Shown: positions 8,856 to 63,953, counted from the stretch's first letter. The stretch: 64,000 nt of DNA from a virus (IMGVR_UViG_3300031965_000021:3175-67174), one strand, 5' to 3'. Notes: generated from the sequence alone by a model not told the origin. Made by a program: numbers and translations.

Positions 8856-9230
8856 ATGTCTGAAAGAAACAAAAAGTGTTTGTCTTTTCCTGTTCTCGGT
8901 GATCAGAAAGGCAATATGTACAAGTTCATGAAAGGAAATACTGATGGTCAAGTCTTGCTCAACGATGTTGCCGGTGGTGCTTGTGTTGGTGTACTTGATA
9001 CCGTAGATGGTGATGCAACCGGAAAAGTTGTCCCTGTAGCCTATGAAGGAGTTGTCCGTGTTCTTTTAGGGGCAACTGTTGCAAAAATGGCATTAGTTGC
9101 TTCCACTAATACTGGCCTGGCTACAACTGCTACTGGCGGCGACTATGTACAGGGTTTGTGTATTGTCGGTGGGGATAGTGGTGATCTTGGTGAAGTACTG
9201 CTTTATCAAAACGCTCAGTTAAACGCATAA
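8856..9230 (+). CDS. capsid cement/decoration protein (DUF2190-like)
   Basis: Small Gly/Val-rich beta protein between scaffold and major capsid genes. Confidence 0.6.
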   Translation: MSERNKKCLSFPVLGDQKGNMYKFMKGNTDGQVLLNDVAGGACVGVLDTVDGDATGKVVPVAYEGVVRVLLGATVAKMALVASTNTGLATTATGGDYVQGLCIVGGDSGDLGEVLLYQNAQLNA

Positions 9231-9274
9231 TCAATTTTTAATAACTTTTTAACAATATATAAGGAGTACAAACA

Positions 9275-10276
9275 ATGAGTAGACCTACCCCCGGCGATGT
9301 CCATGTAAATACGCCATTGACCAACATTTCGATTGCCTATATGCAGTCGGCCGCTGGTTTTATTTCCAATCAAGTTTTCCCTAATATCCCTGTCACCAAA
9401 CAGTCTGATCGTTATTATGTTTACGATCGTGGTGAGTTTAACCGTGATGAGATGGCTGAAAGAGCACCAGGCACCGAATCTGCTGGTGGATCTTACAAGC
9501 TGGATAATACACCGACTTATTTCAGTAAGGTATATGCTTTCCATAAAGATATCCCTGATGAGTTACGCGCTAATAGCGATTCTGTTGTTCAACCTGATCG
9601 TGATGCTACTAATTATGTCACCTCTAAGGCCTTGATTAAGCGAGAAGCACTTTGGGCCAGTAAGTATTTTGTTACCGGTGTTTGGGGAACAGATGCAACT
9701 CCTTCCACTTTGTGGAGTGCTGCTAATTCTACCCCAATTGTTGATGTAAAAGATGCCAAGCGTGATATGCTTGCTGATACCGGATTTGAGCCAAATACTC
9801 TGGTTCTTGGTAAGAAAGTATATGATGTTTTGACCGAGCATCCTTCTATTATTGACCGTGTTAAATACGGACAGACTGCTGGCAACCCTGCTATGGCTGG
9901 ATTAATGGCTCTTATGGCCTTACTTGAGATTGAGCGTGTTTTTATCATGAAGGCAATCAAGAATACTGAGCCTGAGAAAGCTACCAATTTTGCTCATCCC
10001 CCACAGGCTGGTTACTTTGCCCATAGCTTTATTGGTGATCCCCTGTCCGCTCTGCTTTGCTACTCTGCTCCTTCTCCTGGTCTTATGGTCCCGACCGCAG
10101 GGTATACATTTTCTTGGACTGGACTTATTGGTGCTGGAAATCAGGGGAATCGTATTAAGCGTTTCCGTATGGATCCTCTTAACTCTGATCGGGTGGAAAT
10201 TGATTGTGCATTTGACCAAAAGCTTGTTGCTGCCGACCTTGGCTACTTCTTTAATACTTGCGTTGTGGCTGACTAA
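9275..10276 (+). CDS. major capsid protein
   Basis: 333 aa; LTNISIAY...FP.IPV start typical of lambda gpE-like HK97-fold capsids; strong RBS; hairpin downstream. Confidence 0.85.
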   Translation: MSRPTPGDVHVNTPLTNISIAYMQSAAGFISNQVFPNIPVTKQSDRYYVYDRGEFNRDEMAERAPGTESAGGSYKLDNTPTYFSKVYAFHKDIPDELRANSDSVVQPDRDATNYVTSKALIKREALWASKYFVTGVWGTDATPSTLWSAANSTPIVDVKDAKRDMLADTGFEPNTLVLGKKVYDVLTEHPSIIDRVKYGQTAGNPAMAGLMALMALLEIERVFIMKAIKNTEPEKATNFAHPPQAGYFAHSFIGDPLSALLCYSAPSPGLMVPTAGYTFSWTGLIGAGNQGNRIKRFRMDPLNSDRVEIDCAFDQKLVAADLGYFFNTCVVAD

Positions 10277-10309
10277 TCTGATAAACAGGAATAGTAGTGG
10301 AAATACAAT

Positions 10310-10340
10310 AGCCCAGGGGTAACGAAACTTACCCCTGGCT
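10310..10340 (+). terminator. stem-loop after major capsid gene
   Basis: CAGGGGTAA-CGAAAC-TTACCCCTG; no clear U tract. Confidence 0.5.
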
Positions 10341-10363
10341 GAAATCATAAAGAGGATATAACA

Positions 10364-10783
10364 ATGGCAGGATTTGAATTTGGAGAAGAGTTGATTGTGC
10401 TGAAGAAAATTGATGTAGGATCAACTCGATATAAACCTGGCGACGATTTTGAATATGAAGAGTTAGAATTGGATTTTGTTGAAAAACTTTTATCTCAAAG
10501 GATACTGATTCGAAAGGCTTTGGTTTCTCAGAGACTGATGGGCCAATTGAAGGCGTCAAAAGTGGCCAAAATAATCAAAAACGTCAAAGGAGTCAGAATG
10601 GCTGTTTCCTGGCCCTCTGATGAAGATTTGCCTGAAGGAGTGCTAGACTATAGATTTTATAAAAACGACGTACCACAGGCTGATTTGAAAGAAGTAATCG
10701 AAGAACAAGAACCACCCGCTAAGAAAAAAGTTAAAACACCTCGTCGGCGGGCTAAAACTACACTCAAAAAGGACTTTGAATAA
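10364..10783 (+). CDS. hypothetical protein, 139 aa
   Basis: AGAGGA RBS; within the head module. Confidence 0.75.
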   Translation: MAGFEFGEELIVLKKIDVGSTRYKPGDDFEYEELELDFVEKLLSQRILIRKALVSQRLMGQLKASKVAKIIKNVKGVRMAVSWPSDEDLPEGVLDYRFYKNDVPQADLKEVIEEQEPPAKKKVKTPRRRAKTTLKKDFE

Positions 10784-11355
10784 TGACACGAAAAGCAATT
10801 GAAACAGGTTCTCCGTGGAATAATGAGAATGCTGAGGCCAACTTCACAGAGATATATGCGGAAGCTGTGCCTATCGTCCCTATGGCTCCTGCTGCTGGAT
10901 TTCTCGGTACTGGTACTGTGTATAAAAACTCTGTCAAAGCTGACGGGGATTTTATTAAGACCCAAATTTATATTGATCTGACCGGGGCCAAATCCTCCAC
11001 TACTGATCTGGATATTATCGGCAATACTGGAGTTGCTTATATAGGCCAGATACTTGCTGCGATAAACGGCACTATTGTTGGCGGTACTGTTACTTGTCTG
11101 GAAGCACCAGTTGGTGGTATTGCTGATATTGATCTTTATTCTGCTGCTGAGGCAACAGGGGCATTTGATGGTGGTATTGGTACTCTGGCTGAAACTGCCT
11201 TAGTGACTTCCGGTGAGGCCTGGGCGCTTGGGGCAATAAAAGCTATGTCCGGACTGCCTGCTGCAGACAGTTATCTTTATCTTTGTGGTGGGGCTGCTGG
11301 AACTGCAGCTACTTATACAGCAGGCAAGTTTATGATCGAGTTGATCGGCGTATAA
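10783..11355 (+). CDS. hypothetical virion protein, 190 aa
   Basis: TAATG coupling; Gly/Ala/Thr-rich composition. Confidence 0.7.
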   Translation: MTRKAIETGSPWNNENAEANFTEIYAEAVPIVPMAPAAGFLGTGTVYKNSVKADGDFIKTQIYIDLTGAKSSTTDLDIIGNTGVAYIGQILAAINGTIVGGTVTCLEAPVGGIADIDLYSAAEATGAFDGGIGTLAETALVTSGEAWALGAIKAMSGLPAADSYLYLCGGAAGTAATYTAGKFMIELIGV

Positions 11356-11391
11356 GCATCATTATAAATAACTAAATAAAAGGAGTTTATA

Positions 11392-11646
11392 ATGTCGGGA
11401 AATTACGCCGGAATGATTGTGCCGGGGTTCGGATCAACAAAAGTTACCCCGAATGATAATATAGTTTTTGATCCACCGTCAAGGGGGTTGTGGATAGGAA
11501 CCGCAGGGAATATATCTGTTACTTTTCCTGATGGAACTGCCGCAGTTGATATGCCTGCACAGGCAGGATTTTTCCCTTACTTTGTAATCCAGGTCAATGA
11601 AGGATCAACTCCAACAGCAGCAGATAACATTTGGACAATAGTATGA
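11392..11646 (+). CDS. head spike base protein (RcGTA Rcc01079-like)
   Basis: VTPND...PPSRGLWIGTAGNISVTF pattern of this family. Confidence 0.6.
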   Translation: MSGNYAGMIVPGFGSTKVTPNDNIVFDPPSRGLWIGTAGNISVTFPDGTAAVDMPAQAGFFPYFVIQVNEGSTPTAADNIWTIV

Positions 11647-11668
11647 TGATTTCTTTATCTATTAGCCA

Positions 11669-11791
11669 ATGAGTATTCTTGTTTCTGAAAACAGTGGGGA
11701 AAATATTGCCGCTGTGCCTACTCTCGATGACTTATTAATTTCTGAGATCGATGAAATGACTATTGATGAAATTGATACAACTTTAATATGA
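11669..11791 (+). CDS. small acidic hypothetical protein, 40 aa (not in ORF track)
   Basis: MSILVSENSGENIAAVPTLDDLLISEIDEMTIDEIDTTLI*. Confidence 0.4.
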   Translation: MSILVSENSGENIAAVPTLDDLLISEIDEMTIDEIDTTLI

Positions 11792-11798
11792 GGATGCT

Positions 11799-13634
11799 AT
11801 GAGACGCATTTGGTATGTATTTATTATCCTGTTATGTTCGCTGAATGCCTCATGGTCTTTGGCTGCTCAGGAAACACTTTTTGAATCTATACAAGAGTTG
11901 GATGAGCAACCAGGAACATCTAAAGGAGCAGATTGGCGACTTACTGATTTTGCTAACTTTGCCTTGCAGAATGATAATAATGACGAGCTTTACGGTCATA
12001 AAGTAGTTTCAGGGTCAGTAATCGGAGACACTTTAACCCTCATTCTGGCAGACGATTCAACAATTGCTGTGGATGTCGCCACGTTGCTCGACAACACAGA
12101 CGCACAGACAGTCACTACCTTTAGTCTAAACTCGTCAACTAATATCCTGACCCTGACGTTATCCGGCGGGAATACAGAAACTGTTGATTTGTCTGGGTTA
12201 GTTGGTACTGATGGCCTTGTTGATGCCTCAAGTGATGGGGCTGTATATGGTAGGAAAGACGGCGCCTGGGTTGCTGTTGAGCCACTTAAAGGCGCAGATG
12301 ATAATTATGTAACTGATGCCGAAAAAACTGTTCTGGGAAATACTTCTGGAACCAATACAGGCGATCAGGATTTAAGTGGAAAGCAAGATACTTTGGTTAG
12401 CGGTACAAACATCAAGACAGTCAACAGCACCTCTATTCTTGGACCTGGTGACATTGCTGTAACAGGCAGCAGTATTACAGACGGAACGGCAATAGGAGAC
12501 TTAGCCGAGTGGGATGGTGATTCATGGGAGCCTGTTACCCCTGACGAAGTATCATTCGTAGAACCATTATCTTACGATGATACGTTGAAAGAGGTGTCGA
12601 TTGATACTACTGGATTAGGCGGAATCTCTCACGTTGCAAGCGGCAACCCTGATGATGGATCCTGTAACTGGAACACTGCTGATTTCATCTTGAGATGCCG
12701 CACAGGAGCAACAGTTTATGCCAGTGCTGCAATGACTCTTGAAGCTACGCTTGACATAACTGCTCCAACAGCAAGCTCATTCGCAACTGATTCAACTGGT
12801 TTGCAATACAGCTTCACCGCCTCAGAAACATCAACGGTTGACTGTACTAAACTCACGGCAACATGGGCGAATGCAGGAACTTTAGCCGATTTCACTGGCA
12901 CTGATTCCCCTTGCGTAAGCTCAACCCCTGTTTATTCTGACGACACTGGTACCATGGCAGGAGCACAGGGTTTTCTCGTTGATACCGCCCTGAATGAGAG
13001 TATTTCTTTTAGTGGTGAGAGTATTGATAATACGTTAAATACCGCTGTTGCAGCCGGCGAAACGCTGATACTACATTTAGAGGGAACAGAAAGTAATGGT
13101 GGTTCCCTGTTAGTCGGCACAGGGACTGTTTTCTTAACTGGAACCAACTCCACCTTTGTTGAAGCAGACAGCGGAACGGGCTTTTCTCTCACGCAGGTCT
13201 ACAATAGAGTATCTGTAGATTCTGTCAATATAAACCCTAATGAATTCAGAACTGAATTTAAGTTTAAGCGCACTGCTGCCCCTGCGTCTTATGGTAAATT
13301 TTTCGTGGTGGACGATGACACTACTTTACAGTTCAATAGGGCCGCATCCGATACCGCGTATAGCATAACATACAACGGGGTTATCATCTGGTCAGAAACA
13401 GCAGGAGTTAATCTCTGGGATGGAACTGCCTGGACTATATCTGTACAATTGGATAATGCCACTGATACAGTGGAAGTTAAAATTAATGGTGATGTTGTGG
13501 TTAATGATGTTGGAGCAGTGACCTGGCCCACAGATATAGGAACAACAACTACTTTAATGTTTGGAAACAGGCCTACAGAGGACCGTCAAATCGGCGGACT
13601 AATAGGGGATATAAAAGTCTATGCACTGGATTAA
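11799..13634 (+). CDS. signal-peptide protein with fibre-like repeats and C-terminal LamG/ConA-like domain
   Basis: MRRIWYVFIILLCSL..SLA leader; DGAVYGRKDGAW and SGTNTGDQDLSGKQDTLVSGTNIKT fibre motifs; ends QIGGLIGDIKVY. Confidence 0.7.
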   Translation: MRRIWYVFIILLCSLNASWSLAAQETLFESIQELDEQPGTSKGADWRLTDFANFALQNDNNDELYGHKVVSGSVIGDTLTLILADDSTIAVDVATLLDNTDAQTVTTFSLNSSTNILTLTLSGGNTETVDLSGLVGTDGLVDASSDGAVYGRKDGAWVAVEPLKGADDNYVTDAEKTVLGNTSGTNTGDQDLSGKQDTLVSGTNIKTVNSTSILGPGDIAVTGSSITDGTAIGDLAEWDGDSWEPVTPDEVSFVEPLSYDDTLKEVSIDTTGLGGISHVASGNPDDGSCNWNTADFILRCRTGATVYASAAMTLEATLDITAPTASSFATDSTGLQYSFTASETSTVDCTKLTATWANAGTLADFTGTDSPCVSSTPVYSDDTGTMAGAQGFLVDTALNESISFSGESIDNTLNTAVAAGETLILHLEGTESNGGSLLVGTGTVFLTGTNSTFVEADSGTGFSLTQVYNRVSVDSVNINPNEFRTEFKFKRTAAPASYGKFFVVDDDTTLQFNRAASDTAYSITYNGVIIWSETAGVNLWDGTAWTISVQLDNATDTVEVKINGDVVVNDVGAVTWPTDIGTTTTLMFGNRPTEDRQIGGLIGDIKVYALD

Positions 13635-15114
13635 TATTACAATATTATTGATATTTGGCACCCCGACAATATTAATGTCGGCGACAACATCCTCGTTAAC
13701 CCAATATGGTATAACGTGGACATTTTCAAACGAGATTGAATATGGCCAGTTTATTAATGGGGATTACTGGGTGGTAGATGCTGGGTCTGGTGTCAATATC
13801 ACTGGTATTTCCCCTGGATATACAGACACCCCAAGAGCTATGAATGGCAGCACGATCAATCCATCGGGAGCCACTCACGGTTATGATAATTTCACTTCGG
13901 CAGTGTATGACGCAGCGAAGAATGTTGGAATAGGAATATCTCCCGAAACCCCTCTAGTTCTGTCTGCCGGGGATTCACTAGTGTCCACGATAAGCAACGA
14001 AGTCGCAGGAGATCAGGGAGGAGGGGTTCACATTCCATATGTCAATTCCGCTGCGGTCCTTTCCGTGGTTTCATCCCCCCCGGCAAGTGGTAGTTTTCGT
14101 CCAGGGTTTTGTGATGTAGTCGCAAAGTCAGTACACAATATCGAAGATATAGAATGGACTAAATTGCAGTCATTATCAATGGTTTCTACCAAGCCTTCAT
14201 TAAGTGAAAAAGCCAGTAAATTACAAATGCCTTGGCTTAATCATCTTGCTGGAGCGGTTGCACATAGATATCTGCACCCCTCGTCAAGTGGGTTGGATAA
14301 CTACTACTATGCGGGAGATTTTGCGGAAACAGCGATTATGCTTCATTTGGATTATCCGCTAGAGGATAAAAAACCTCTGGCTATCAGGTACATACAATTA
14401 GGCATAGACTTGTACAGTTATGTTGCTGGTGGGGGTAGGTGGCACTCTCCTGATGGGGGCCATTTCACAGGTCAGAAATGGCCTATGCTCTTTGCGGGGT
14501 TAATGCTTAACAACCCTGATATGCAAAATATAGGCAGCACGTACACAACAGGAATAGGAAACGAGGACGACCAGACATTTTATGTATCTCAAGCTGATGT
14601 GGATTTCACTGTTGAAGCCGGGAATGAGGGATATACGACCGAACACGTAGGTATGCCGGAATGGTTGGATAAAGCTAGCAAAAGAGACAGTTCATGGAGC
14701 GCAACTTATAGAAACATCGGTACTGGTGGTAAACTGTGGGGAGCTTTTGCTACCGCCGCAAGGATCATGGGAGCTGAAGGGTTATGGAACAACCCGTCTT
14801 TCTTCGACTACGTAGTACGGTATATGGCTATAGCCAAAGGTGATCCTGATCCGTTTGGTTATATGGTCAGTAACCAGAGTGCAGGAGATCGGGGCTCGGC
14901 ATTAAATGGGGAGTTTTATGATACGTACTGGAATTATGCTACTGCCGAGCCGACATGCTCAGACCTCACCCAAAACGGTGATGAGGAAGGAATAGACTGC
15001 GGAGGAAGTTGCCCTCCATGTGAAACATCTGTACTACAAGGATTACGCAAAGGAGCGTTTAGAATGGCAGGGGCAGGGGGTAAACCAGTTAATTTAGCGG
15101 AAACAGTAGAGTGA
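13621..15114 (+). CDS. signal-peptide protein, possibly polysaccharide-active, with Cys-rich C-terminal module
   Basis: Hydrophobic leader; aromatic-rich core; TCSD..QNGDEEGIDCGGSCPPC motif. Confidence 0.6.
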   Translation: MHWINITILLIFGTPTILMSATTSSLTQYGITWTFSNEIEYGQFINGDYWVVDAGSGVNITGISPGYTDTPRAMNGSTINPSGATHGYDNFTSAVYDAAKNVGIGISPETPLVLSAGDSLVSTISNEVAGDQGGGVHIPYVNSAAVLSVVSSPPASGSFRPGFCDVVAKSVHNIEDIEWTKLQSLSMVSTKPSLSEKASKLQMPWLNHLAGAVAHRYLHPSSSGLDNYYYAGDFAETAIMLHLDYPLEDKKPLAIRYIQLGIDLYSYVAGGGRWHSPDGGHFTGQKWPMLFAGLMLNNPDMQNIGSTYTTGIGNEDDQTFYVSQADVDFTVEAGNEGYTTEHVGMPEWLDKASKRDSSWSATYRNIGTGGKLWGAFATAARIMGAEGLWNNPSFFDYVVRYMAIAKGDPDPFGYMVSNQSAGDRGSALNGEFYDTYWNYATAEPTCSDLTQNGDEEGIDCGGSCPPCETSVLQGLRKGAFRMAGAGGKPVNLAETVE

Positions 15115-15263
15115 AAGATTAGAAACTACTATCTGTCATTTTATGTTAACTCAGATATTTTAGACTTCTCGGCATTACTTGATTTCAGTGGCGGGGGAAT
15201 AAGGGCTTGAACCTTGATAAGCGGAGTCAGATAAAAAGAAATGAATTTTAACAGAGAGAAGAA

Positions 15264-16721
15264 ATGAAGAAACCTTTAATAGTTATTAGTCTAATCTTCC
15301 TGACTGCATCTTTCTCTTTTGCTGCGTCAGGGCAAGGATTAACATCGTGGGATGCCCAAATAGAACCTGTAGCAAGTTCTGATTTGGTCGGGATTACGGA
15401 TATATCTGACACCACTCAATCGGACAATGGCTCTTCAAAGAAAGCCACTATGACCCAGGTTGGGGCTTTTATGGCAACCTTGTTTACTTCGAAAACGGGT
15501 AATGAGACAATCGCAGGGATTAAAACATTTACTTCTTCCCCGATAGTGCCTACTCCTACAACGGATATGCAGGTGGCCACGAAAAAATATGTCGATGATA
15601 ATTCTGGAACAGGTACAGTAAATGTTGTCCAGACCGTAAGTCCAACAGGATCGACCTCTTCTGCACCGTCTGAATCCGCTGTTGGTATTGGTTTGGCAAG
15701 TAAGCAAAATACGGCAGATGTACAGGAAGTTTCCGCTGATGTTGAGGCCATGTTGGAGTCAGCAAATAATGCTGAAATACTCAGCAATATCGGTGCAGCT
15801 CCAGCCGGTACAACTGGTGCTACATCGATTGATGATTTAACTGATTGGCCTACAGGTGTAACAGCTACTGAGCTGGGCTATGTAGATGGTGTAACGTCCT
15901 CAATTCAATCTCAAATTAATAGCCTGACGGTAGGCGCACCTGTAGTTGCTGTTCCTACTTACTCAGATGAGGCTTGCACAGCAGGTGTATATTCCCTAAG
16001 TACATCTCCTCTTCGTCAATACATTTGTTTCGCAACTGGAGACTGGAATTATATAGATTCAACAGGATTAGTTGATTGGGATAACCCTGCTCCAGTTACC
16101 GAAAGCACTACTTTCTTTTTGGATTTTGAGGGAACCGAAGCTGAAGACCTGGCTCAGGGTGGGACATGGACAAAAGATTTTCCTGCCGGTATCTTCACTC
16201 TTGATTACACTGATGGTCCCATAGCTGGTTCGCAATCATTAAGAATAGTAAATGATGCTGGAGGGACTAATTATTTATATTCTCCATTATATCCATCTCC
16301 TGTAGATACTGTGTACTATTCTTATAGTTTCAAAATGGGTAGTACCACATCGTCAATTAAACAAGGATTTGGAGCATTTGGTACTTTAGATGCATCTGTT
16401 GGTATGACAATTTACGAGGGAGGCTTAAAGCTTAAACAAGGAACAACAGCATCAGCAGGTATACCAATATCAACAGGCTCCACATATTATATATGTGGTA
16501 AAGTTGTGTCATCTAGCGGCAGCAACGACGGTATGCATATAGCCCGTGTTGGTACTGATTCGAATTATAATATTAATCCCGTCTATGGTATTACAAACGG
16601 TACAAATACCGATTTGATAAAACAAGTGTATATGGCTCAATACTCATCTAACTCGTTAACTGTAGACGATTGGAAAACTTCAACTGAGGTACTGTCAGAA
16701 TGTGGCGACTTGTCTTTATAA
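15264..16721 (+). CDS. signal-peptide protein with tail-fibre-type repeat and C-terminal ConA-like domain
   Basis: MKKPLIVISLIFLTASFSFA leader; GNETIAGIKTF..SPIVPTPT...VATKKYVDD fibre repeat; ends LTVDDWK. Confidence 0.7.
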   Translation: MKKPLIVISLIFLTASFSFAASGQGLTSWDAQIEPVASSDLVGITDISDTTQSDNGSSKKATMTQVGAFMATLFTSKTGNETIAGIKTFTSSPIVPTPTTDMQVATKKYVDDNSGTGTVNVVQTVSPTGSTSSAPSESAVGIGLASKQNTADVQEVSADVEAMLESANNAEILSNIGAAPAGTTGATSIDDLTDWPTGVTATELGYVDGVTSSIQSQINSLTVGAPVVAVPTYSDEACTAGVYSLSTSPLRQYICFATGDWNYIDSTGLVDWDNPAPVTESTTFFLDFEGTEAEDLAQGGTWTKDFPAGIFTLDYTDGPIAGSQSLRIVNDAGGTNYLYSPLYPSPVDTVYYSYSFKMGSTTSSIKQGFGAFGTLDASVGMTIYEGGLKLKQGTTASAGIPISTGSTYYICGKVVSSSGSNDGMHIARVGTDSNYNINPVYGITNGTNTDLIKQVYMAQYSSNSLTVDDWKTSTEVLSECGDLSL

Positions 16722-18418
16722 TACTACTACTGTTTGCAAATAATGTTCTTGCAGAAACTGTAGCCTATCACGACTTTAATGACAACAGTTTTGGACCATT
16801 TAGTGCTGGTGATACATGGTCTATTCAGCAATCAGGAGGTATTGATAACTCAAGAGCTGCTATGCTTTCTATTACAAAAAGAGCGGATGGTACATCACTT
16901 AGTAAGTCGGTTTTGAGTTATAAATCCAGGGAATATTGGGTAGAATTTGACGTTAAAGTAACTGGCACGCTTATAGGAGGTCATAAGTTTATAAAATTCT
17001 TTGGTGCTGTTGATGGGTGGTCCCACAATAACATGACTGTTGGTATAGAAGAAGGTTCTCACAAGAACGAAGGTGTTGGATTTTATGACGATTCCCGACG
17101 TTTCGATAGATGGACTGGGCCTCCGGCATCAGGAAACTACACTGGGTCTGTGTGGAATAAAACAGGAGAATATATAGATATAAGGGGTGGTGGCTGGGGT
17201 AGGATTAAAGTTTGGGTAAAACGCGCCCTCCCTAATACCAGGGACGGTGAAATAAAAATCTGGTGGAAAGGAAATCTAGTATCTCACATATCCAACATGG
17301 ATAGTTATGAAGAGTCGTTTGCCGATACTATCCCTGGCTTTAAAAGTATACAGTTGGGCGGATATGTTCACGAAGGCTTCGTTGATGGTGTTACAGCACC
17401 TTGGTATTTATGGGTTGATAATCTTTATATGGGAACCACAGAACAAGGCGATACTACCCCTGAACTACTGACTTGCTACCCTGATTTGGATAACGATCTT
17501 TACCCAGGATCGGGAAGCCAATCAGCAGAAACCTGCCCAGCGAATTATTTCACCTTTGCCCATTTTACTTCGATGGAAACAGATTGTAATGATACTAATT
17601 TGGCAATTAATCCGGGAGCCACCGAAATTTGTGGGAACTCTATAGACGATGATTGCAATGGTTATGACGAAATATGTCTGGAAGAGTTGGAGTGCAGCGC
17701 CACTTACTTTAATTTATGTGATGTAACACAGTGTTCTGCATTGGGGTTGTACCCATGGGGGGGCACCTGCAACACAGTGCCACAACCTGCAAGTATTGTA
17801 AGTGATAATTTGATACTCAACTCAAATCTGGTGGAGTGGACCTCGACTTTGCCTGAAAATTACACATCATATCAAGAGTCAGATATATCCAAATCAAGCC
17901 TTGGTGCGAACATGGATAACGGGGCTTTGTTGAATCCTCTTTATTTTCTAACTCCTGACACCACTTATACTGCTGTGTTTAACTTAATTAGGATACAGCA
18001 TGGAACTAGCAAGCTGTGGTCTTATGGCTTTTCCTCAGATATTACTTCAGGTACTACGGGCACTGTAGTGCATGAGTTTACCACGCCGTCTGTGCTTAAT
18101 GATAAAAAAATATACATTGGATCAAGTCTATCATCTAACGTAGATATAAACAATATACGGTTATACACCACCACAACTCTATCATGTACTGATTTAGATG
18201 GCGATGGTTATTCAATTGAGGGTGAGCTGTGCGGTATTGTTGATTGCGACGATACCAATGCAGCAATTAATCCTGGGGAAACTGAAATATGTGGAAACGG
18301 TGTTGATGATAATTGTGTTAACGGCGACGAAGTGTGTGATGTAGTACCTGTTGAACTTGGACCGTTTTGGCTATACAAAAACTCGTTGGGTAGGGCTTAT
18401 ATACCTGCCCCAGAGTAA
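16700..18418 (+). CDS. signal-peptide protein with polysaccharide lyase-like beta-sandwich and MopE-like Cys repeats
   Basis: MWRLVFIILLLFANNVLA leader; GGHKFIKF..DGEIKIWW..LWVDNLY pattern; two DC.D.N..INPG.TEICGN..DD.C repeats. Confidence 0.6.
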   Translation: MWRLVFIILLLFANNVLAETVAYHDFNDNSFGPFSAGDTWSIQQSGGIDNSRAAMLSITKRADGTSLSKSVLSYKSREYWVEFDVKVTGTLIGGHKFIKFFGAVDGWSHNNMTVGIEEGSHKNEGVGFYDDSRRFDRWTGPPASGNYTGSVWNKTGEYIDIRGGGWGRIKVWVKRALPNTRDGEIKIWWKGNLVSHISNMDSYEESFADTIPGFKSIQLGGYVHEGFVDGVTAPWYLWVDNLYMGTTEQGDTTPELLTCYPDLDNDLYPGSGSQSAETCPANYFTFAHFTSMETDCNDTNLAINPGATEICGNSIDDDCNGYDEICLEELECSATYFNLCDVTQCSALGLYPWGGTCNTVPQPASIVSDNLILNSNLVEWTSTLPENYTSYQESDISKSSLGANMDNGALLNPLYFLTPDTTYTAVFNLIRIQHGTSKLWSYGFSSDITSGTTGTVVHEFTTPSVLNDKKIYIGSSLSSNVDINNIRLYTTTTLSCTDLDGDGYSIEGELCGIVDCDDTNAAINPGETEICGNGVDDNCVNGDEVCDVVPVELGPFWLYKNSLGRAYIPAPE

Positions 18419-18431
18419 GGGGGTTTATTTA

Positions 18432-18821
18432 ATGAAGAAAACAATAGCAATAATCATAATTACCTTTGCTCTGATTGGTTGTTCCCCACAAAAACAATAT
18501 ACCTTAACTGAGCAGCAAATTGACAGCCTGAACGGAAGCACAGCTATAGCCCTATGGAAAGCAAGTAAAGCTAAAACCGATGAATGTTCAAGCCCAGCAG
18601 TTGTTAAGGCTATAGCCGGAATGTTTTTTGTCAGGAATTATTCTGATTGCTGCTGGCAACATGATTTTGATTATAGCTATGGATATATATATGGAATAAG
18701 TAAAGAGCAAGCCGATTATAGTTTACATGAGTGTGTAGATGCAAGTAACAACCCAATTGTGGCAGATGTAATTTATAGTTTTGTTAAAGTTTTTGGTAAT
18801 GGATTTTATAAAGGAGATTGA
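18432..18821 (+). CDS. lipoprotein with phospholipase A2-like motif
   Basis: Lipobox FALIG-C from ATG 18432; CCWQHDFDY resembles the PLA2 C-x-x-H-D motif. Confidence 0.55.
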   Translation: MKKTIAIIIITFALIGCSPQKQYTLTEQQIDSLNGSTAIALWKASKAKTDECSSPAVVKAIAGMFFVRNYSDCCWQHDFDYSYGYIYGISKEQADYSLHECVDASNNPIVADVIYSFVKVFGNGFYKGD

Positions 18822-19006
18822 AAATGCCAACAGTAAAACAACAAGTAACATCAAAAACAAATGCGGGAATGGTTGTAGTTGGGGCAATTCTTGCGGCCCT
18901 ACCTATATACGGTATTGATTTAGGCGAAGAATTGACTGCTTTTATAATGATGGGCGCAGGCATTCTTCTCAGACAGATAACGAAAGAACCACTGTCGGAT
19001 AAATAA
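18818..19006 (+). CDS. putative holin
   Basis: 62 aa, two hydrophobic segments, ends GILLRQIT.EPL. Confidence 0.55.
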   Translation: MKMPTVKQQVTSKTNAGMVVVGAILAALPIYGIDLGEELTAFIMMGAGILLRQITKEPLSDK

Positions 19007-19383
19007 TGGAAAGTAAAATAATCTCTATTGTCGGAATGGTTACAGGTTGGATTTTGTCGGCATTGGCTCTTGCAGCATGGGTTGGAAAACTAGGAAACAG
19101 AGTGGATAAGTGTGAAGATGATATAAAAGACCTTTCTAGCGCTGTTACTCTCCCACAATGTATAGAAAGAATGGATGCGATAAAATCAAATTCCAATTTG
19201 CAATTTAACCATGCTGCTGAACGACAAATAGAGATTAAAAAACTAATCCAAGAACAAAACGAAGCAGTCTTGTTGCTTAATGAACAAAATGAAAGGAGAT
19301 TGGCAAAAGTTCAGGAATTAGCTGAGGAACGTTTTGATAGATTGGTTGGGCTATTGGTCAAGAACATAGAGAATAATAAATAA
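19006..19383 (+). CDS. membrane-anchored coiled-coil protein (holin/antiholin/spanin-like)
   Basis: N-terminal TM segment then coiled coil; in the lysis cassette. Confidence 0.5.
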   Translation: MESKIISIVGMVTGWILSALALAAWVGKLGNRVDKCEDDIKDLSSAVTLPQCIERMDAIKSNSNLQFNHAAERQIEIKKLIQEQNEAVLLLNEQNERRLAKVQELAEERFDRLVGLLVKNIENNK

Positions 19384-19400
19384 TTTAAATAGGAGAGAGC

Positions 19401-19601
19401 ATGTACAAATTATCTGTAGATTTTAAAAAATGCAAAGATTGCTGGACATGTGAAACTCTCCTTCCTCGATTCCGTTCTGTATATGGTGGGTCGTTGCTAA
19501 TCAGTGAAACAAAAATCGCTGATGAAGAAATCAGGGCAGCAGCAAGAAGAGTACAAGATGGCTGCCCTAATGGCGCGATAAAACTTCAGAGGGTTGAATA
19601 A
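19401..19601 (+). CDS. ferredoxin-like protein (single Fe-S cluster type)
   Basis: CKDCWTC...CPNGAI (CxxCxxC..CP) in 66 aa; GGAGAG RBS. Confidence 0.65.
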   Translation: MYKLSVDFKKCKDCWTCETLLPRFRSVYGGSLLISETKIADEEIRAAARRVQDGCPNGAIKLQRVE

Positions 19602-20089
19602 TGTTTAGACCTGAATATTTGCGTGACATCATAAGGCTTTCAACTAGGACAATTAACAGATGGTCACCAAACTCTGAAGAAATCCAAATAATGATAGCTG
19701 CCCACGAATCCTATCTTGGCCTGCACTTAAAGCAAATTGGCGGAGGACCAGCAAGAGGTCTGTACGGCATGGAGTTTGGCGTGGATTCAAAAGGCAAGGA
19801 CAGAACGGAGTGTGATATCTGGCGATCGTATTTGTCCTTTAAACCTGGAATAGTGGCACAAATCAAAGCACTTGGTGGTCCGAGTGGACCTGATGAGTTA
19901 CACCTGACATACAATTATGTTTACGCAACAATTATGTGCCGGATTAAGTTGTTACAATGCCCTGGTCCTTTACCTGCTGCTGATAACATTCCGGCTATGG
20001 GAGAATATGCCACAAGATTTTGGAATGGGGGCGGCAAAGCCTCACCGCAAAAATATATCAATGATTATGAACGGCTAGTTTTAAACTAA
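19601..20089 (+). CDS. lysozyme-fold endolysin/transglycosylase-like protein
   Basis: AAHES..L.Q.GGGPARGLYGME pattern; coupled to the ferredoxin gene. Confidence 0.55.
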   Translation: MFRPEYLRDIIRLSTRTINRWSPNSEEIQIMIAAHESYLGLHLKQIGGGPARGLYGMEFGVDSKGKDRTECDIWRSYLSFKPGIVAQIKALGGPSGPDELHLTYNYVYATIMCRIKLLQCPGPLPAADNIPAMGEYATRFWNGGGKASPQKYINDYERLVLN

Positions 20090-20107
20090 AAGGAAACAGG
20101 TCTTAAA

Positions 20108-20524
20108 ATGGCAACACTAGATACCATACGAGTTTTAATTCAGGATACCAGTTTAACCCCAATAATGGCCGATGCTGATATCGAAGCTGTTCTCTCGATA
20201 GAAGACAACGTTTATAGGGCAGCATCGACCTGTTGTAGGGCCATGGCGGCCTACTTTGCTAAAAAGGTATCTCTTACTATAGATGTTATAAAAATCGCTA
20301 ATAATCAGAAATTTGAGCACTATACAGCGTTAGCTAAGTTTTATGACCAAAGAGCAAGGGAGGGTGGTGGCTATATTGGTGGTGGAGCGGTTGGCACAGG
20401 TGTTCTTTTAACAGGTGTTTCTGCTTCTGAAATGGATGCTGTAATAGATGATACTGACAGGGTAGATTCAGTTTTTTATGTAGGGTTAAATGATAATCCA
20501 AATCCTGATGAGGAATTAAGTTAA
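20108..20524 (+). CDS. head-tail adaptor
   Basis: 138 aa; IRVLIQDT..D.DIEAVL start; synteny. Confidence 0.6.
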   Translation: MATLDTIRVLIQDTSLTPIMADADIEAVLSIEDNVYRAASTCCRAMAAYFAKKVSLTIDVIKIANNQKFEHYTALAKFYDQRAREGGGYIGGGAVGTGVLLTGVSASEMDAVIDDTDRVDSVFYVGLNDNPNPDEELS

Positions 20525-62655: not shown

Positions 62656-63576
62656 TTAATAGTTAAGCAATTCTCTTATCAATCCATCAGCGTCTTCCTG
62701 TTTCATCTCTCCCGGATCTCCTTTTAACAACTCCACTATCTCCACATGACGATCCTCATTATAAAGAGCAATTGCCAATAGTCTGGCCTGCTCCTGAGCC
62801 TGCTCCTCTCCATCAAATAAAATAAACACCTTCCTGAATCTCAGCAATAACACCACCTGCTCCTGAGTATACTTAATCCCGAAAGTCGCAACAGAGCCAT
62901 CTCCCAACCGCCACACATCTGTAACCCCTTCAACCACCACTACACTATCACCAACAACATTATCATACCCATATAAACAGTGCTTGTGAGGCCTGACTTC
63001 ATCCTCTTCCCTACAAGCCTTATATTTTAATTCTGATCTGCCGGTTATATCCCGCCCTTGATACGACACTAATTTGCTTTCAAATTCGATCGGAATTATA
63101 ATCCTATGGTTATACCCTCCCGCTGGCCCTGTGGCTTGTAGTGAGTACTTTGCAGCGATTTTTGAAGGAAGAAAGCCTCTTACCCTCAGATATTTTTTAT
63201 GGATAGTCTTCAGTGGGCCTGTTCCTGGTGGCAATTTACAAACTGTTACTCCTGAAGACGGTCCTTTTTTAATCCCTGGAGAATAAAAGGCTATATTGCT
63301 GCCTTCTAAAGAGTATTGCTTAATGATCAAATAGGCTTCTCTTTCATCAACAGATAGGATGGTTGAGATTACTTTGGTGGCTTTCTTTCCTCCACACCGC
63401 CAACAGGAGAAGGCGCCAAAGAACTTTGATTTTAGGTCAACACAATAGCCCAGGTGATTTCCTGCGTGTCCCGAGCAAAATGGGCAGGGGATTCCCACCC
63501 ATCCTTTGGCTATACCGGGACCACTTTCTTGAAAAGTAATCCCGAACTTTTGATAGAGTTTGATTATGTCAATCAT
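62656..63576 (-). CDS. DNA primase (zinc finger plus Toprim)
   Basis: CPFC..H....CWRCG; VVEGVTD; LFDGE. Confidence 0.85.
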   Translation of the reverse strand: MIDIIKLYQKFGITFQESGPGIAKGWVGIPCPFCSGHAGNHLGYCVDLKSKFFGAFSCWRCGGKKATKVISTILSVDEREAYLIIKQYSLEGSNIAFYSPGIKKGPSSGVTVCKLPPGTGPLKTIHKKYLRVRGFLPSKIAAKYSLQATGPAGGYNHRIIIPIEFESKLVSYQGRDITGRSELKYKACREEDEVRPHKHCLYGYDNVVGDSVVVVEGVTDVWRLGDGSVATFGIKYTQEQVVLLLRFRKVFILFDGEEQAQEQARLLAIALYNEDRHVEIVELLKGDPGEMKQEDADGLIRELLNY

Positions 63577-63953
63577 TACTGGTACTCGATTGAAAAAATA
63601 TCACCTGAAGAAGCCTCGGCAAGTGCAACTACTTTATTTGTAACAACTCCACCAAAAGTATTTTTGCCGCGAAAGAGCATTGTCAAAAGCAGATACCCAT
63701 CTTTATCAATATATCTTGTTTCAACGTGCTTAAAACTTTCTGGATCATTCATATTAGACTTTATTACTTTAACTAATTTTTTGTGTGATCCATCCCATAG
63801 ATCAAATTGGTTTTCAATCAATTGTTGTTCTGATGCCGCTGGCGCTATAACTTTTGTTTCGGTTGGTTTTACGGTTACGTCATTTTTGAGATTTCTTCCA
63901 ACCATAACAAGTGATATAAAAACAAGGAAAAGTGTTATTAAAGTTCTCATCAC
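63576..63953 (-). CDS. membrane-anchored hypothetical protein
   Basis: N-terminal TM segment; MNDPESFKH..T..FRGKN.FGG.V motif. Confidence 0.7.
   Translation of the reverse strand: MMRTLITLFLVFISLVMVGRNLKNDVTVKPTETKVIAPAASEQQLIENQFDLWDGSHKKLVKVIKSNMNDPESFKHVETRYIDKDGYLLLTMLFRGKNTFGGVVTNKVVALAEASSGDIFSIEYQ

Follow-up and report, generated by a model that had tools for sequence, protein, structure and literature searches.

Paired signal-bearing fibre-like and enzyme-like proteins in the structural module of an uncultured tailed phage: a candidate exported glycan-targeting cassette

The structural module of the uncultured tailed virus IMGVR_UViG_3300031965_000021 contains, at positions 11,799 to 18,418 of the 64,000-nucleotide stretch analyzed here (hereafter the window), an island of four large open reading frames (ORF1 to ORF4; 611, 497, 485 and 572 amino acids (aa)), which all begin with signal-like leaders and form two overlapping pairs, each made of a fibre-like protein followed by an enzyme-like one. 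This island is a real, non-random and recurrent feature, and we lean towards reading it as a late-expressed, glycan-targeting cassette whose proteins would be exported by the Sec pathway and whose two pairs of binder and enzyme-like protein, in our best reading translationally coupled, would act beside probable lysis genes. The accepted view places the folding and assembly of the receptor-binding fibres and depolymerases of tailed phages in the cytoplasm. In the window, and in a growing number of uncultured phages, modules of the fibre and depolymerase type carry export signals and paired cysteines, lie beside lysis or probable lysis genes and are swapped as binder-plus-enzyme units. While exported fibre-like adhesins and signal-bearing phage genes are already known, the signal-bearing pair of fibre and enzyme is a new variant in its combination, and our search of the literature found no paper on fibre-plus-enzyme signal cassettes in the late operons of lytic tailed phages.

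The window corresponds to bases 3175-67174 of a complete 67,174-bp IMG/VR virus with direct terminal repeats. Its siphovirus-type structural module lies on the + strand (~930 to 32,600), where large terminase, portal, MuF, a scaffold-like protein, the major head protein (9275-10276) and three small proteins precede the island, and head-tail connectors (from 20108), tail tube, tape measure, distal tail proteins and an M15 peptidase endolysin follow it. The phage's own promoter motif, found in a first-pass annotation made by a model from the sequence, has four copies, of which the sole + strand copy is at 931 and none is within the island; the island hence probably belongs to the late structural transcript. 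Scans of 10200-20200 for consensus promoters and terminators gave no useful excess over shuffled sequences. The coordinates, lengths, pairing and signal-like leaders that this annotation had given for the four frames, which all lie on the + strand, were borne out, with overlaps of 14 nucleotides (nt) between ORF1 and ORF2 and 22 nt between ORF3 and ORF4. By megablast, no GenBank phage carries DNA similar to 9000-20000 of the window, and two close relatives were found in IMG/VR, L002 (a 19.8-kb contig) and L003 (64.7 kb). NCBIfam returned zero matches for the nine island proteins, sequence searches of the PDB gave nothing useful for ORF1 to ORF4 (for ORF1 and ORF3, no match at E ≤1), and tblastn against GenBank phages gave no match for ORF4 and short motif matches only for ORF1 and ORF3.

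The leaders are, most probably, genuine signals for Sec export. Each of the four ATGs lies 2-4 codons 3' of an in-frame stop, so that no longer N-terminus is possible, and no downstream ATG that would drop the leader exists in ORF1, ORF3 or ORF4, ORF2 having one at codon 19. The first-pass annotation had left room for true starts downstream of the leaders; for ORF1, ORF3 and ORF4 such starts are ruled out, and this objection to its proposal falls away. The leaders read MRR, 12 hydrophobic residues and SLA/AQ in ORF1 (slash, putative cleavage point), MKK, 10 hydrophobic residues and SFA/AS in ORF3, and MWR, 10 hydrophobic residues and VLA/ET in ORF4; that of ORF2 is weaker, with no basic residue and LMS/A. 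Type I signals were defined by a basic n-region, a hydrophobic core of 7-15 residues, small residues at -3/-1 and no acidic residue before the core, features which a heuristic screen finds together in ORF1, ORF3 and ORF4, ORF2 missing the basic residue. Among the 82 gene-like ORFs screened on hydrophobicity and the -3/-1 residues, just ORF1 to ORF4 were signal-like, similar N-termini being found besides in a lipoprotein (18432-18821) and an ORF with an N-terminal membrane anchor (63576-63953); the chance of four such ORFs adjoining is, by arithmetic, ~79/C(82,4) = 4.5e-5.

Comparison with relatives points the same way. In L002 and L003 all four orthologues retain their leaders, and those of ORF2 and ORF4 have been rewritten with their form kept; the identity of these orthologues is 43% for ORF2 and ~51% for ORF4, the adjoining spike-base protein being 94-98% identical. 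Within the ORF2 family, leaders were found in 103 of the 120 homologues examined, the mature domain always starts with S-I/L-T-Q-Y/H-G-I-T-W, and leaderless phage forms (L030, L037, L039, L043) start exactly at this mature domain. Leaders of differing sequence stand ahead of an invariant HDFN in all five close homologues of the ORF4 N-domain (5/5), and 8 of the 120 examined homologues of the ORF3 fibre part carry one. Two of these eight have a type I leader (P0380) and a lipoprotein leader (P0377, LSSC), respectively, before the same mature motif; a lipobox at this position is hard to explain except by export. The export proposed in the first-pass annotation is in this way backed comparatively, by relatives, families and leaderless forms, the leader of ORF2 remaining the weaker one. 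Cysteines are paired in all four proteins: they occur in close pairs in mature ORF1, ORF2 and ORF3, and ORF4 has 16. These Cys-rich modules suggest folding in an oxidizing compartment.

Virion-fibre repeats had been noticed in two of the four proteins, and both cases hold. The stretch KGADDNYVTDAEK...NTGDQDLS of ORF1 also occurs in 17 other phage fibre-like proteins; the fibre repeats of ORF1 are common to many leaderless phage fibres, and its N-part is kept in the relatives. The N-terminal 240 residues of ORF3 have 503 homologues with the tail-fibre Pfam domains PF18338, PF12789, PF13884, PF12708 or PF07484; ORF3's own Pfam hit, a BppL_N-type fibre motif, lies below the cut-off (18.3 vs 25.8 bits), and a motif GxKTFxSSP is found at aa 77-91. 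The lectin-like C-termini claimed for both proteins fared unequally. For ORF1, aa 468-608 weakly match Laminin_G_3 (PF13385; 17.2 bits, cut-off 27.6, E 0.006) and the ESM Atlas neighbours are clusters of LamG phage proteins (scores 0.82-0.89). For the C-terminal domain of ORF3, no family was found with Pfam, hhalign against the ORF4 N-domain or BLASTP against L003 ORF1, and a ConA-like domain was not supported at the sequence level (hhalign probability 0.1 against the ORF4 N-domain profile; BLASTP E 1.7 against the L003 ORF1 C-terminus). In their plan of signal peptide, conserved domain and variable C-terminal tip, ORF1 and ORF3 resemble the mosaic adhesive trimer (MAT) proteins of Bdellovibrio bacteriovorus, which are tail-fibre-like, have a signal peptide directly followed by a conserved domain, differ in their adhesive C-terminal tips, and bind glycans on the cell surface, to which they are exported (PMC10769870). 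What this likeness shows is a design in common, not homology: MAT genes are chromosomal genes of a predatory bacterium, encode ~1000 aa and have no enzyme partner, and ORF1 and ORF3 have no PDB sequence match at E ≤1.

ORF2 belongs to a family of 906 homologues that has no Pfam entry and corresponds to PHROG 34846 (E 1.8e-32). Its AlphaFold2 model (predicted local distance difference test, pLDDT, 82) combines an N-terminal beta-sandwich with a helical toroid-like domain, which makes it an enzyme candidate. Foldseek found no solved relative of this model at E ≤0.001, and two viral proteins of the BFVD match it at E 1e-26. Cultured relatives detected by tblastn are cluster J mycobacteriophages and a Microcystis phage. 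Family members are fused to dockerin, type IX secretion system (T9SS) sorting domains, FN3 or F5/8C, and occur in cellular contexts in metagenome-assembled genomes (MAGs) of many phyla, some beside O-antigen-ligase-like and glycosyltransferase genes; on two bacterial MAG contigs (L050, L054) the O-antigen-ligase-like neighbours are multi-pass proteins. These contexts hint that cellular members trim the cell's own exopolysaccharide. A Bdellovibrionales MAG bears the second-best ORF2 homologue among genome contigs, and neither ORF3 nor the ORF4 N-domain was found in it. With more than 900 members and no Pfam entry, the ORF2 family makes a promising candidate for a new family of enzymes acting on glycans.

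For ORF4, the predicted N-terminal domain is like the polysaccharide lyases (PL) of families PL14, PL36 and PL20 in its jelly-roll fold, and its lyase role is putative. Residues 19-250 superpose on the PL14 enzyme 5gmt of Aplysia with Z 15.1 (root-mean-square deviation 3.4, 205 aligned residues), and PL36 6kcw (Aly36B), vAL-1 (3gne) and 2zzj follow with Z 14.6, 14.0 and 13.3. Foldseek matches have E values of 1.5e-6 to 7e-6, and the ESM Atlas places the domain among PL-like and PL14 clusters (scores 0.96-0.97, TM 0.77-0.79). The domain contains invariant polar residues. The Cys-rich modules that had been ascribed to the enzyme-like proteins were recovered, since ORF4 matches the putative metal-binding motif MopE (PF11617) in two stretches with 67.9 bits against a cut-off of 27 and the cysteines of all four proteins are paired. 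In the relatives, ORF4 has 355 aa, compared with 572 in the window.

The two pairs are mosaic. The DNA of the window is 82-89% identical to that of L003 and L002 except in two blocks delimited by blastn, 13052-14943 and 15746-18235, outside which each fibre-like protein keeps its N-part and each enzyme-like protein its C-terminal tail. As judged from these alignments, this is the exchange pattern of receptor-binding modules. Such exchange is known for the receptor-binding modules of phage tailspikes and depolymerases and for the fibre-plus-chaperone cassettes S-U of Mu and gp37-gp38 of T4. The island resembles all of these in having a conserved N-part and a swapped C-domain with its downstream gene, and differs from them by its signal peptides, where they assemble in the cytoplasm, and by a downstream partner that is a 500-aa enzyme-like protein instead of a small chaperone. 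A joining of binder and enzyme is also observed elsewhere: gp45 of Mycobacterium phage Halley (706 aa; L152 8305-10425; PHROG 34846) is a fusion of Laminin_G_3 (E 1.3e-11) to an ORF2-like domain, from which it follows that a LamG binder and the enzyme-like domain work together. This protein shares with the C-terminus of ORF1 and ORF2 the LamG-plus-enzyme pairing and a place at the tail/lysis junction, with minor tail genes on one side and lysin A, lysin B and holin on the other. Unlike them it is one leaderless polypeptide, 28% identical, from a phage of Mycobacterium, and its annotation comes without any experiments that we have seen; in cluster J, gp45-type proteins are labelled hypothetical, minor tail protein or lysin A according to the record.

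The island is unusual, as had been claimed, and it is not unique. Across 23 viral contigs bearing ORF2-family genes, a leadered family gene ends a run of 2-5 signal-bearing genes in L026, L027, L028, L032, L034, L041, L042, L045 and L047, so that at least nine other viral contigs carry signal-bearing runs, to which a Cellulophaga phage described below is added. Endolysins adjoin the signal cassettes of L047 and L016, and one lies ~4 kb from a leaderless ORF2-family gene in L036. L016 (1238-5604; IMGVR_UViG_3300025011_000235) is a fragment of an unrelated phage in which three consecutive signal-bearing proteins (611, 317 and 596 aa) are flanked by the terminase and by a cassette of membrane-protein and lysozyme genes; the first carries both fibre motifs, KGADDNYVTD and GDETIAGIKTFSS, and a protein of L027 has the same mature N-terminus (TDFxDTDQxYGWNG). 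Signal-bearing genes have also been reported in 'Nixviridae' prophages of Porphyromonas gingivalis (PMC10367356), ~5% of prophage-encoded carbohydrate-active enzymes (CAZymes) carry signal peptides (PMC13507307), and a role at lysis or in adhesion has been proposed for viral NosD-like proteins (PMC13452462). The Nixviridae genes and the prophage CAZymes are, like the island, Sec-signal-bearing genes of phages, and their site of action is assumed to be the host envelope or the exterior of the cell (PMC10367356, PMC13507307); unlike it they come from temperate phages and are of unknown type or encode single enzymes, and neither fibre-enzyme pairs nor a late-operon cassette have been described for them.

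Upstream of the island, the first-pass annotation had named a head-spike base gene and had drawn an analogy with RcGTA, where this gene is followed by that of the head fibre. The former is confirmed. A profile of 80 homologues (exhaustive HMMER search) reaches E 5.3e-16 with PDB 6tb9, 'Head spike base Rcc01079', the match spanning positions 3-80 of 84, and E 4.8e-11 with 8cjz_h, 'Spike Base Protein'; the 84-aa ORF alone gives a weak PDB match (8cjz_h, E 0.076) and PHROG 12296 (E 1.7e-7). By this profile evidence, the ORF and the RcGTA head-spike base are truly homologous. Residues 2-10 of one RcGTA fibre subunit, I-A-L-G-L-G-L-G-L, anchor it in the pentamer of the base (PMC7296036). A base homologue is present in 22 of 401 Pseudomonadota genomes, where the next gene mostly overlaps the base stop codon and begins with a short alternating motif, e.g. 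MGRFGFGFGAG, MPGFGYGFGIG or MIGLEL, then charged residues. ORF1 starts 152 nt 3' of the base gene with its own ribosome-binding site (GAGGA), and was rejected as a head fibre of the RcGTA type, having no stop-codon overlap and a contiguous 12-residue core with RR and AXA in place of a plug of ~9 alternating residues. The analogy thus stands for the base gene and fails for ORF1: as in the RcGTA spike (Rcc01079 and Rcc01080; PDB 6tb9), a base homologue is followed by a fibre-like, putatively glycan-binding gene, which here has a Sec-type leader and no alternating plug, and the true slot is filled by a 40-aa acidic ORF. In L002 (450-611), where the sequence differs by one base, this ORF becomes continuous with an ATG that overlaps the base stop, which yields a plug-like N-terminus, MMISLSISPMSVLVS...; in the window (11643-11791, +) and in L003 the first nine codons (MMISLSISQ) run into a stop. 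The fused N-terminus of L002 alternates hydrophobic and small residues, as does the RcGTA head-fibre plug. The acidic ORF may be a head-fibre remnant, or a mini-plug or adaptor for such a fibre. Tblastn of GenBank phages gave no spike-base match, P0187 and P0190 used as single queries for neighbours in other phages gave nothing, and no other viral locus examined holds a base homologue; the other signal cassettes are hence not linked to spike bases. The spike-base domain is repeated (up to 7 stretches) or N-terminal in proteins of 396-1909 aa (P0189, P0192, P0254, P0295, P0297), an arrangement that points to fusions of base and fibre, or to poly-base proteins, in other viruses.

In the glycan-targeting reading, the long structural transcript of the + strand would supply all four proteins. 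The Sec pathway would carry them across the inner membrane, their leaders would be removed, and folding, with formation of disulfides, would take place in the periplasm or farther out. ORF1 and ORF3 would each provide a conserved N-terminal stalk with a swappable C-terminal binding domain, and the pairs would bind and cut a polysaccharide of the host surface, e.g. capsule, exopolysaccharide (EPS) or O-antigen. Acting in step with the adjacent probable lysis cassette, they could free the progeny from matrix and debris, or strip receptors. Binding domain and enzyme would co-vary as one exchange unit because, as we propose, both must fit the same glycan. Free or envelope-acting proteins of this kind would represent an overlooked class of late secreted phage factors able to shape capsule and biofilm release and receptor turnover; whether they act so or on particles, they bear on the genome-based prediction of host range and depolymerase content.

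Several observations weigh against this reading. The modules of ORF1 and ORF3 otherwise occur in leaderless virion fibres, and their pattern of conserved N-part and variable C-part is typical of particle-attached receptor-binding proteins. Leaderless ORF2-family genes are found in structural modules after the major head gene (L030, L037, L043). The ORF2 leader has no basic residue, its ATG at codon 19 could begin a leaderless form, and the leader screen is a crude heuristic. On the enzymatic side, no substrate or catalytic residues were identified for ORF2 or ORF4; the ORF4 model has a pLDDT of 60, and generic lectins match it with Z 12-13, just 2-3 units below the lyases. An exhaustive structural scan with ORF2 gave weak matches, many of them polysaccharide lyases and hydrolases, at Z ≤5.5 (chondroitinase 9o3q 4.7, GH105 4.3, GH88 4.0, alginate lyases 3.8-3.9). 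The assignment of the neighbouring lysis genes rests on their form and on one relative.

It is conceivable, if rather unlikely in our estimate, that ORF1 to ORF4, or at least ORF1 and ORF3, are exported, fold in the periplasm and dock on finished particles only when lysis breaches the membrane. There they would serve as host-recognition fibres and depolymerases, attached to the tail or to the capsid, at the head-spike base or elsewhere. The homology of the fibre modules to virion fibres, the conserved N-parts with swapped C-parts, as in receptor-binding proteins, the leaderless ORF2-family genes already mentioned, the annotation of Halley gp45 as a minor tail protein and the location of the island within the structural operon, where it directly follows the spike-base gene and adjoins probable lysis genes, all agree with it. 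So does the Cellulophaga phage phi18:3 (NC_021794), whose gp085-087 are three consecutive large late proteins with textbook leaders just upstream of the endolysin. Of all its proteins that are annotated as structural 'based on experimental MS/MS proteomics analysis' (MS/MS, tandem mass spectrometry), these three alone bear signals. The genes after the trio (gp085-gp095 in all; L155 3892-9584, L154) encode membrane proteins, an endolysin, a protein that has a membrane segment at its N-terminus, and a lipobox protein, and the record annotation is silent on the signal peptides of gp085-087. Phi18:3, which is lytic, is like our phage in its run of signal-bearing proteins upstream of membrane-protein, endolysin and spanin-like genes; unlike it, it belongs to another phage family with a Bacteroidota host, shows no sequence similarity to ORF1-4 (BLASTP E >0.04) and has no known enzyme/lectin pairing, and its trio is not beside a spike-base gene. 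Moreover, abundant proteins that are secreted or bound to vesicles can turn up in the MS/MS of purified particles; such co-purification being possible, the phi18:3 data raise the capture of exported proteins by virions as a reading without establishing it. Against docking, no docking motif was found, the N-terminus of ORF1 after cleavage is acidic, unlike the known head-fibre plugs, and the families of ORF2 and ORF4 are ordinary ones of secreted bacterial proteins, which speaks for free or envelope action. We know of no tailed phage shown to add periplasm-matured parts. In its fuller form, slightly more doubtful still, particles would receive Sec-exported, disulfide-bonded fibre-lectins and enzymes from the periplasm at lysis, on capsid vertices or tails, vertex docking being by the spike base, perhaps via the small acidic ORF. 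If proteins joined particles after lysis in this manner, it would be a new, two-compartment assembly route, not described for Caudoviricetes.

Three further explanations are less probable. Export to the envelope, the adjoining conserved lipoprotein with a weak Cor-like match and the fast swapping of binder and enzyme, as expected of proteins tracking a host surface glycan, could also reflect the masking or destruction of receptors together with this lipoprotein, a superinfection exclusion that would keep progeny from being lost on debris and infected cells and block further phages. We regard this as improbable: the Cor match spans the lipoprotein leader only, the genes are in a late operon whereas exclusion genes usually act early or in lysogens, and four large proteins far exceed known exclusion systems. 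More improbable again is that the proteins are not exported, their hydrophobic N-termini being uncleaved anchors of ordinary cytoplasmic fibres in the spike-base pentamer or another virion site. The hydrophobic N-terminal peptide that holds the RcGTA fibre subunit in its base (PMC7296036) and the place of ORF1 after the base gene recommend it; however, the fibres following bases start with ~9 alternating hydrophobic/Gly residues and the leaders of ORF1-4 with a basic n-region, 10-12 contiguous hydrophobic residues and AXA, the ORF2 and ORF4 leaders vary between relatives whose base proteins are nearly identical, a lipobox signal fills the leader position in P0377, and bacterial homologues are leadered outside any phage context. 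Least probable of all, in our view, are auxiliary genes of the nutrient type, that is, secreted carbohydrate-active proteins degrading environmental polysaccharide for the infected cell. The signal-bearing fraction of prophage CAZymes cited above (PMC13507307) and the wide occurrence of the ORF2 and ORF4 families as secreted bacterial proteins fit such a role. Conversely, no integrase was noticed among the genes examined in the partly annotated window and replication genes, e.g. the DnaE polymerase found in the first-pass annotation, suggest a lytic phage; a late structural operon comes too late to feed the cell, and fibre-like partners with receptor-binding-style swapping fit host-surface targeting better.

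Features of the island and its surroundings (window coordinates)
Feature	Position	Strand	Basis
Head-spike base protein, homologue of RcGTA Rcc01079, 84 aa	11392..11646	+	profile, PDB and PHROG matches
Small acidic ORF, 40 aa, in the slot of GTA-type (gene transfer agent) head-fibre genes	11669..11791	+	comparison with L002, L003 and fibre N-termini
ORF1, 611 aa: leader aa 1-22 (SLA/AQ), fibre-repeat N-part to ~aa 418, variable LamG-like aa 468-608	11799..13634	+	
ORF2, 497 aa: leader aa 1-20, enzyme candidate aa 21-440, conserved Cys-rich tail aa 441-497	13621..15114	+	
ORF3, 485 aa: leader aa 1-20 (SFA/AS), conserved tail-fibre-type N-part to ~aa 160, variable C-terminal domain	15264..16721	+	
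ORF4, 572 aa: leader aa 1-18 (VLA/ET), polysaccharide-lyase-like jelly roll aa 19-250	16700..18418	+	
ORF4, remainder: MopE motif ~aa 295-322, uncharacterized middle, second MopE ~aa 496-546, conserved C-terminal tail			
Exchange cassette 1: ORF1 C-terminal domain and ORF2 body	13052..14943	.	blastn segments
Exchange cassette 2: ORF3 C-terminal domain and ORF4 body	15746..18235	.	blastn segments
Lipoprotein, 129 aa, lipobox LIGC, kept in relatives	18432..18821	+	PHROG 6098
62-aa ORF with two hydrophobic segments (holin-like), then 125-aa i-spanin-like protein	18818..19383	+	sequence form only
162-aa protein, probable lysis-enzyme slot	19601..20089	+	PHROG 3108; L002 slot

Regarding the genes 3' of ORF4, the region 18432-20089 is a probable lysis cassette, with, in order, the lipoprotein, the 62-aa protein, the 125-aa protein, which combines a membrane segment with a coiled coil, a 66-aa Cys-rich ORF and the 162-aa protein. 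In L002 the slot of the latter holds a PF07486 cell-wall hydrolase, so that it is probably a slot for a lysis enzyme. The Cor-like match of the lipoprotein is N-terminal (PHROG 1119, E 0.0016). The Cys-rich ORF (19401-19601, +) contains CKDCWTCE ... GCPNGA and looks ferredoxin-like by eye. Finally, the major head gene is followed by a 139-aa protein (10364-10783, +) which has MAGFEFGEEL at its start and a strongly basic tail, KKKVKTPRRRAK, at its end; it matches no family and is kept in the relatives.

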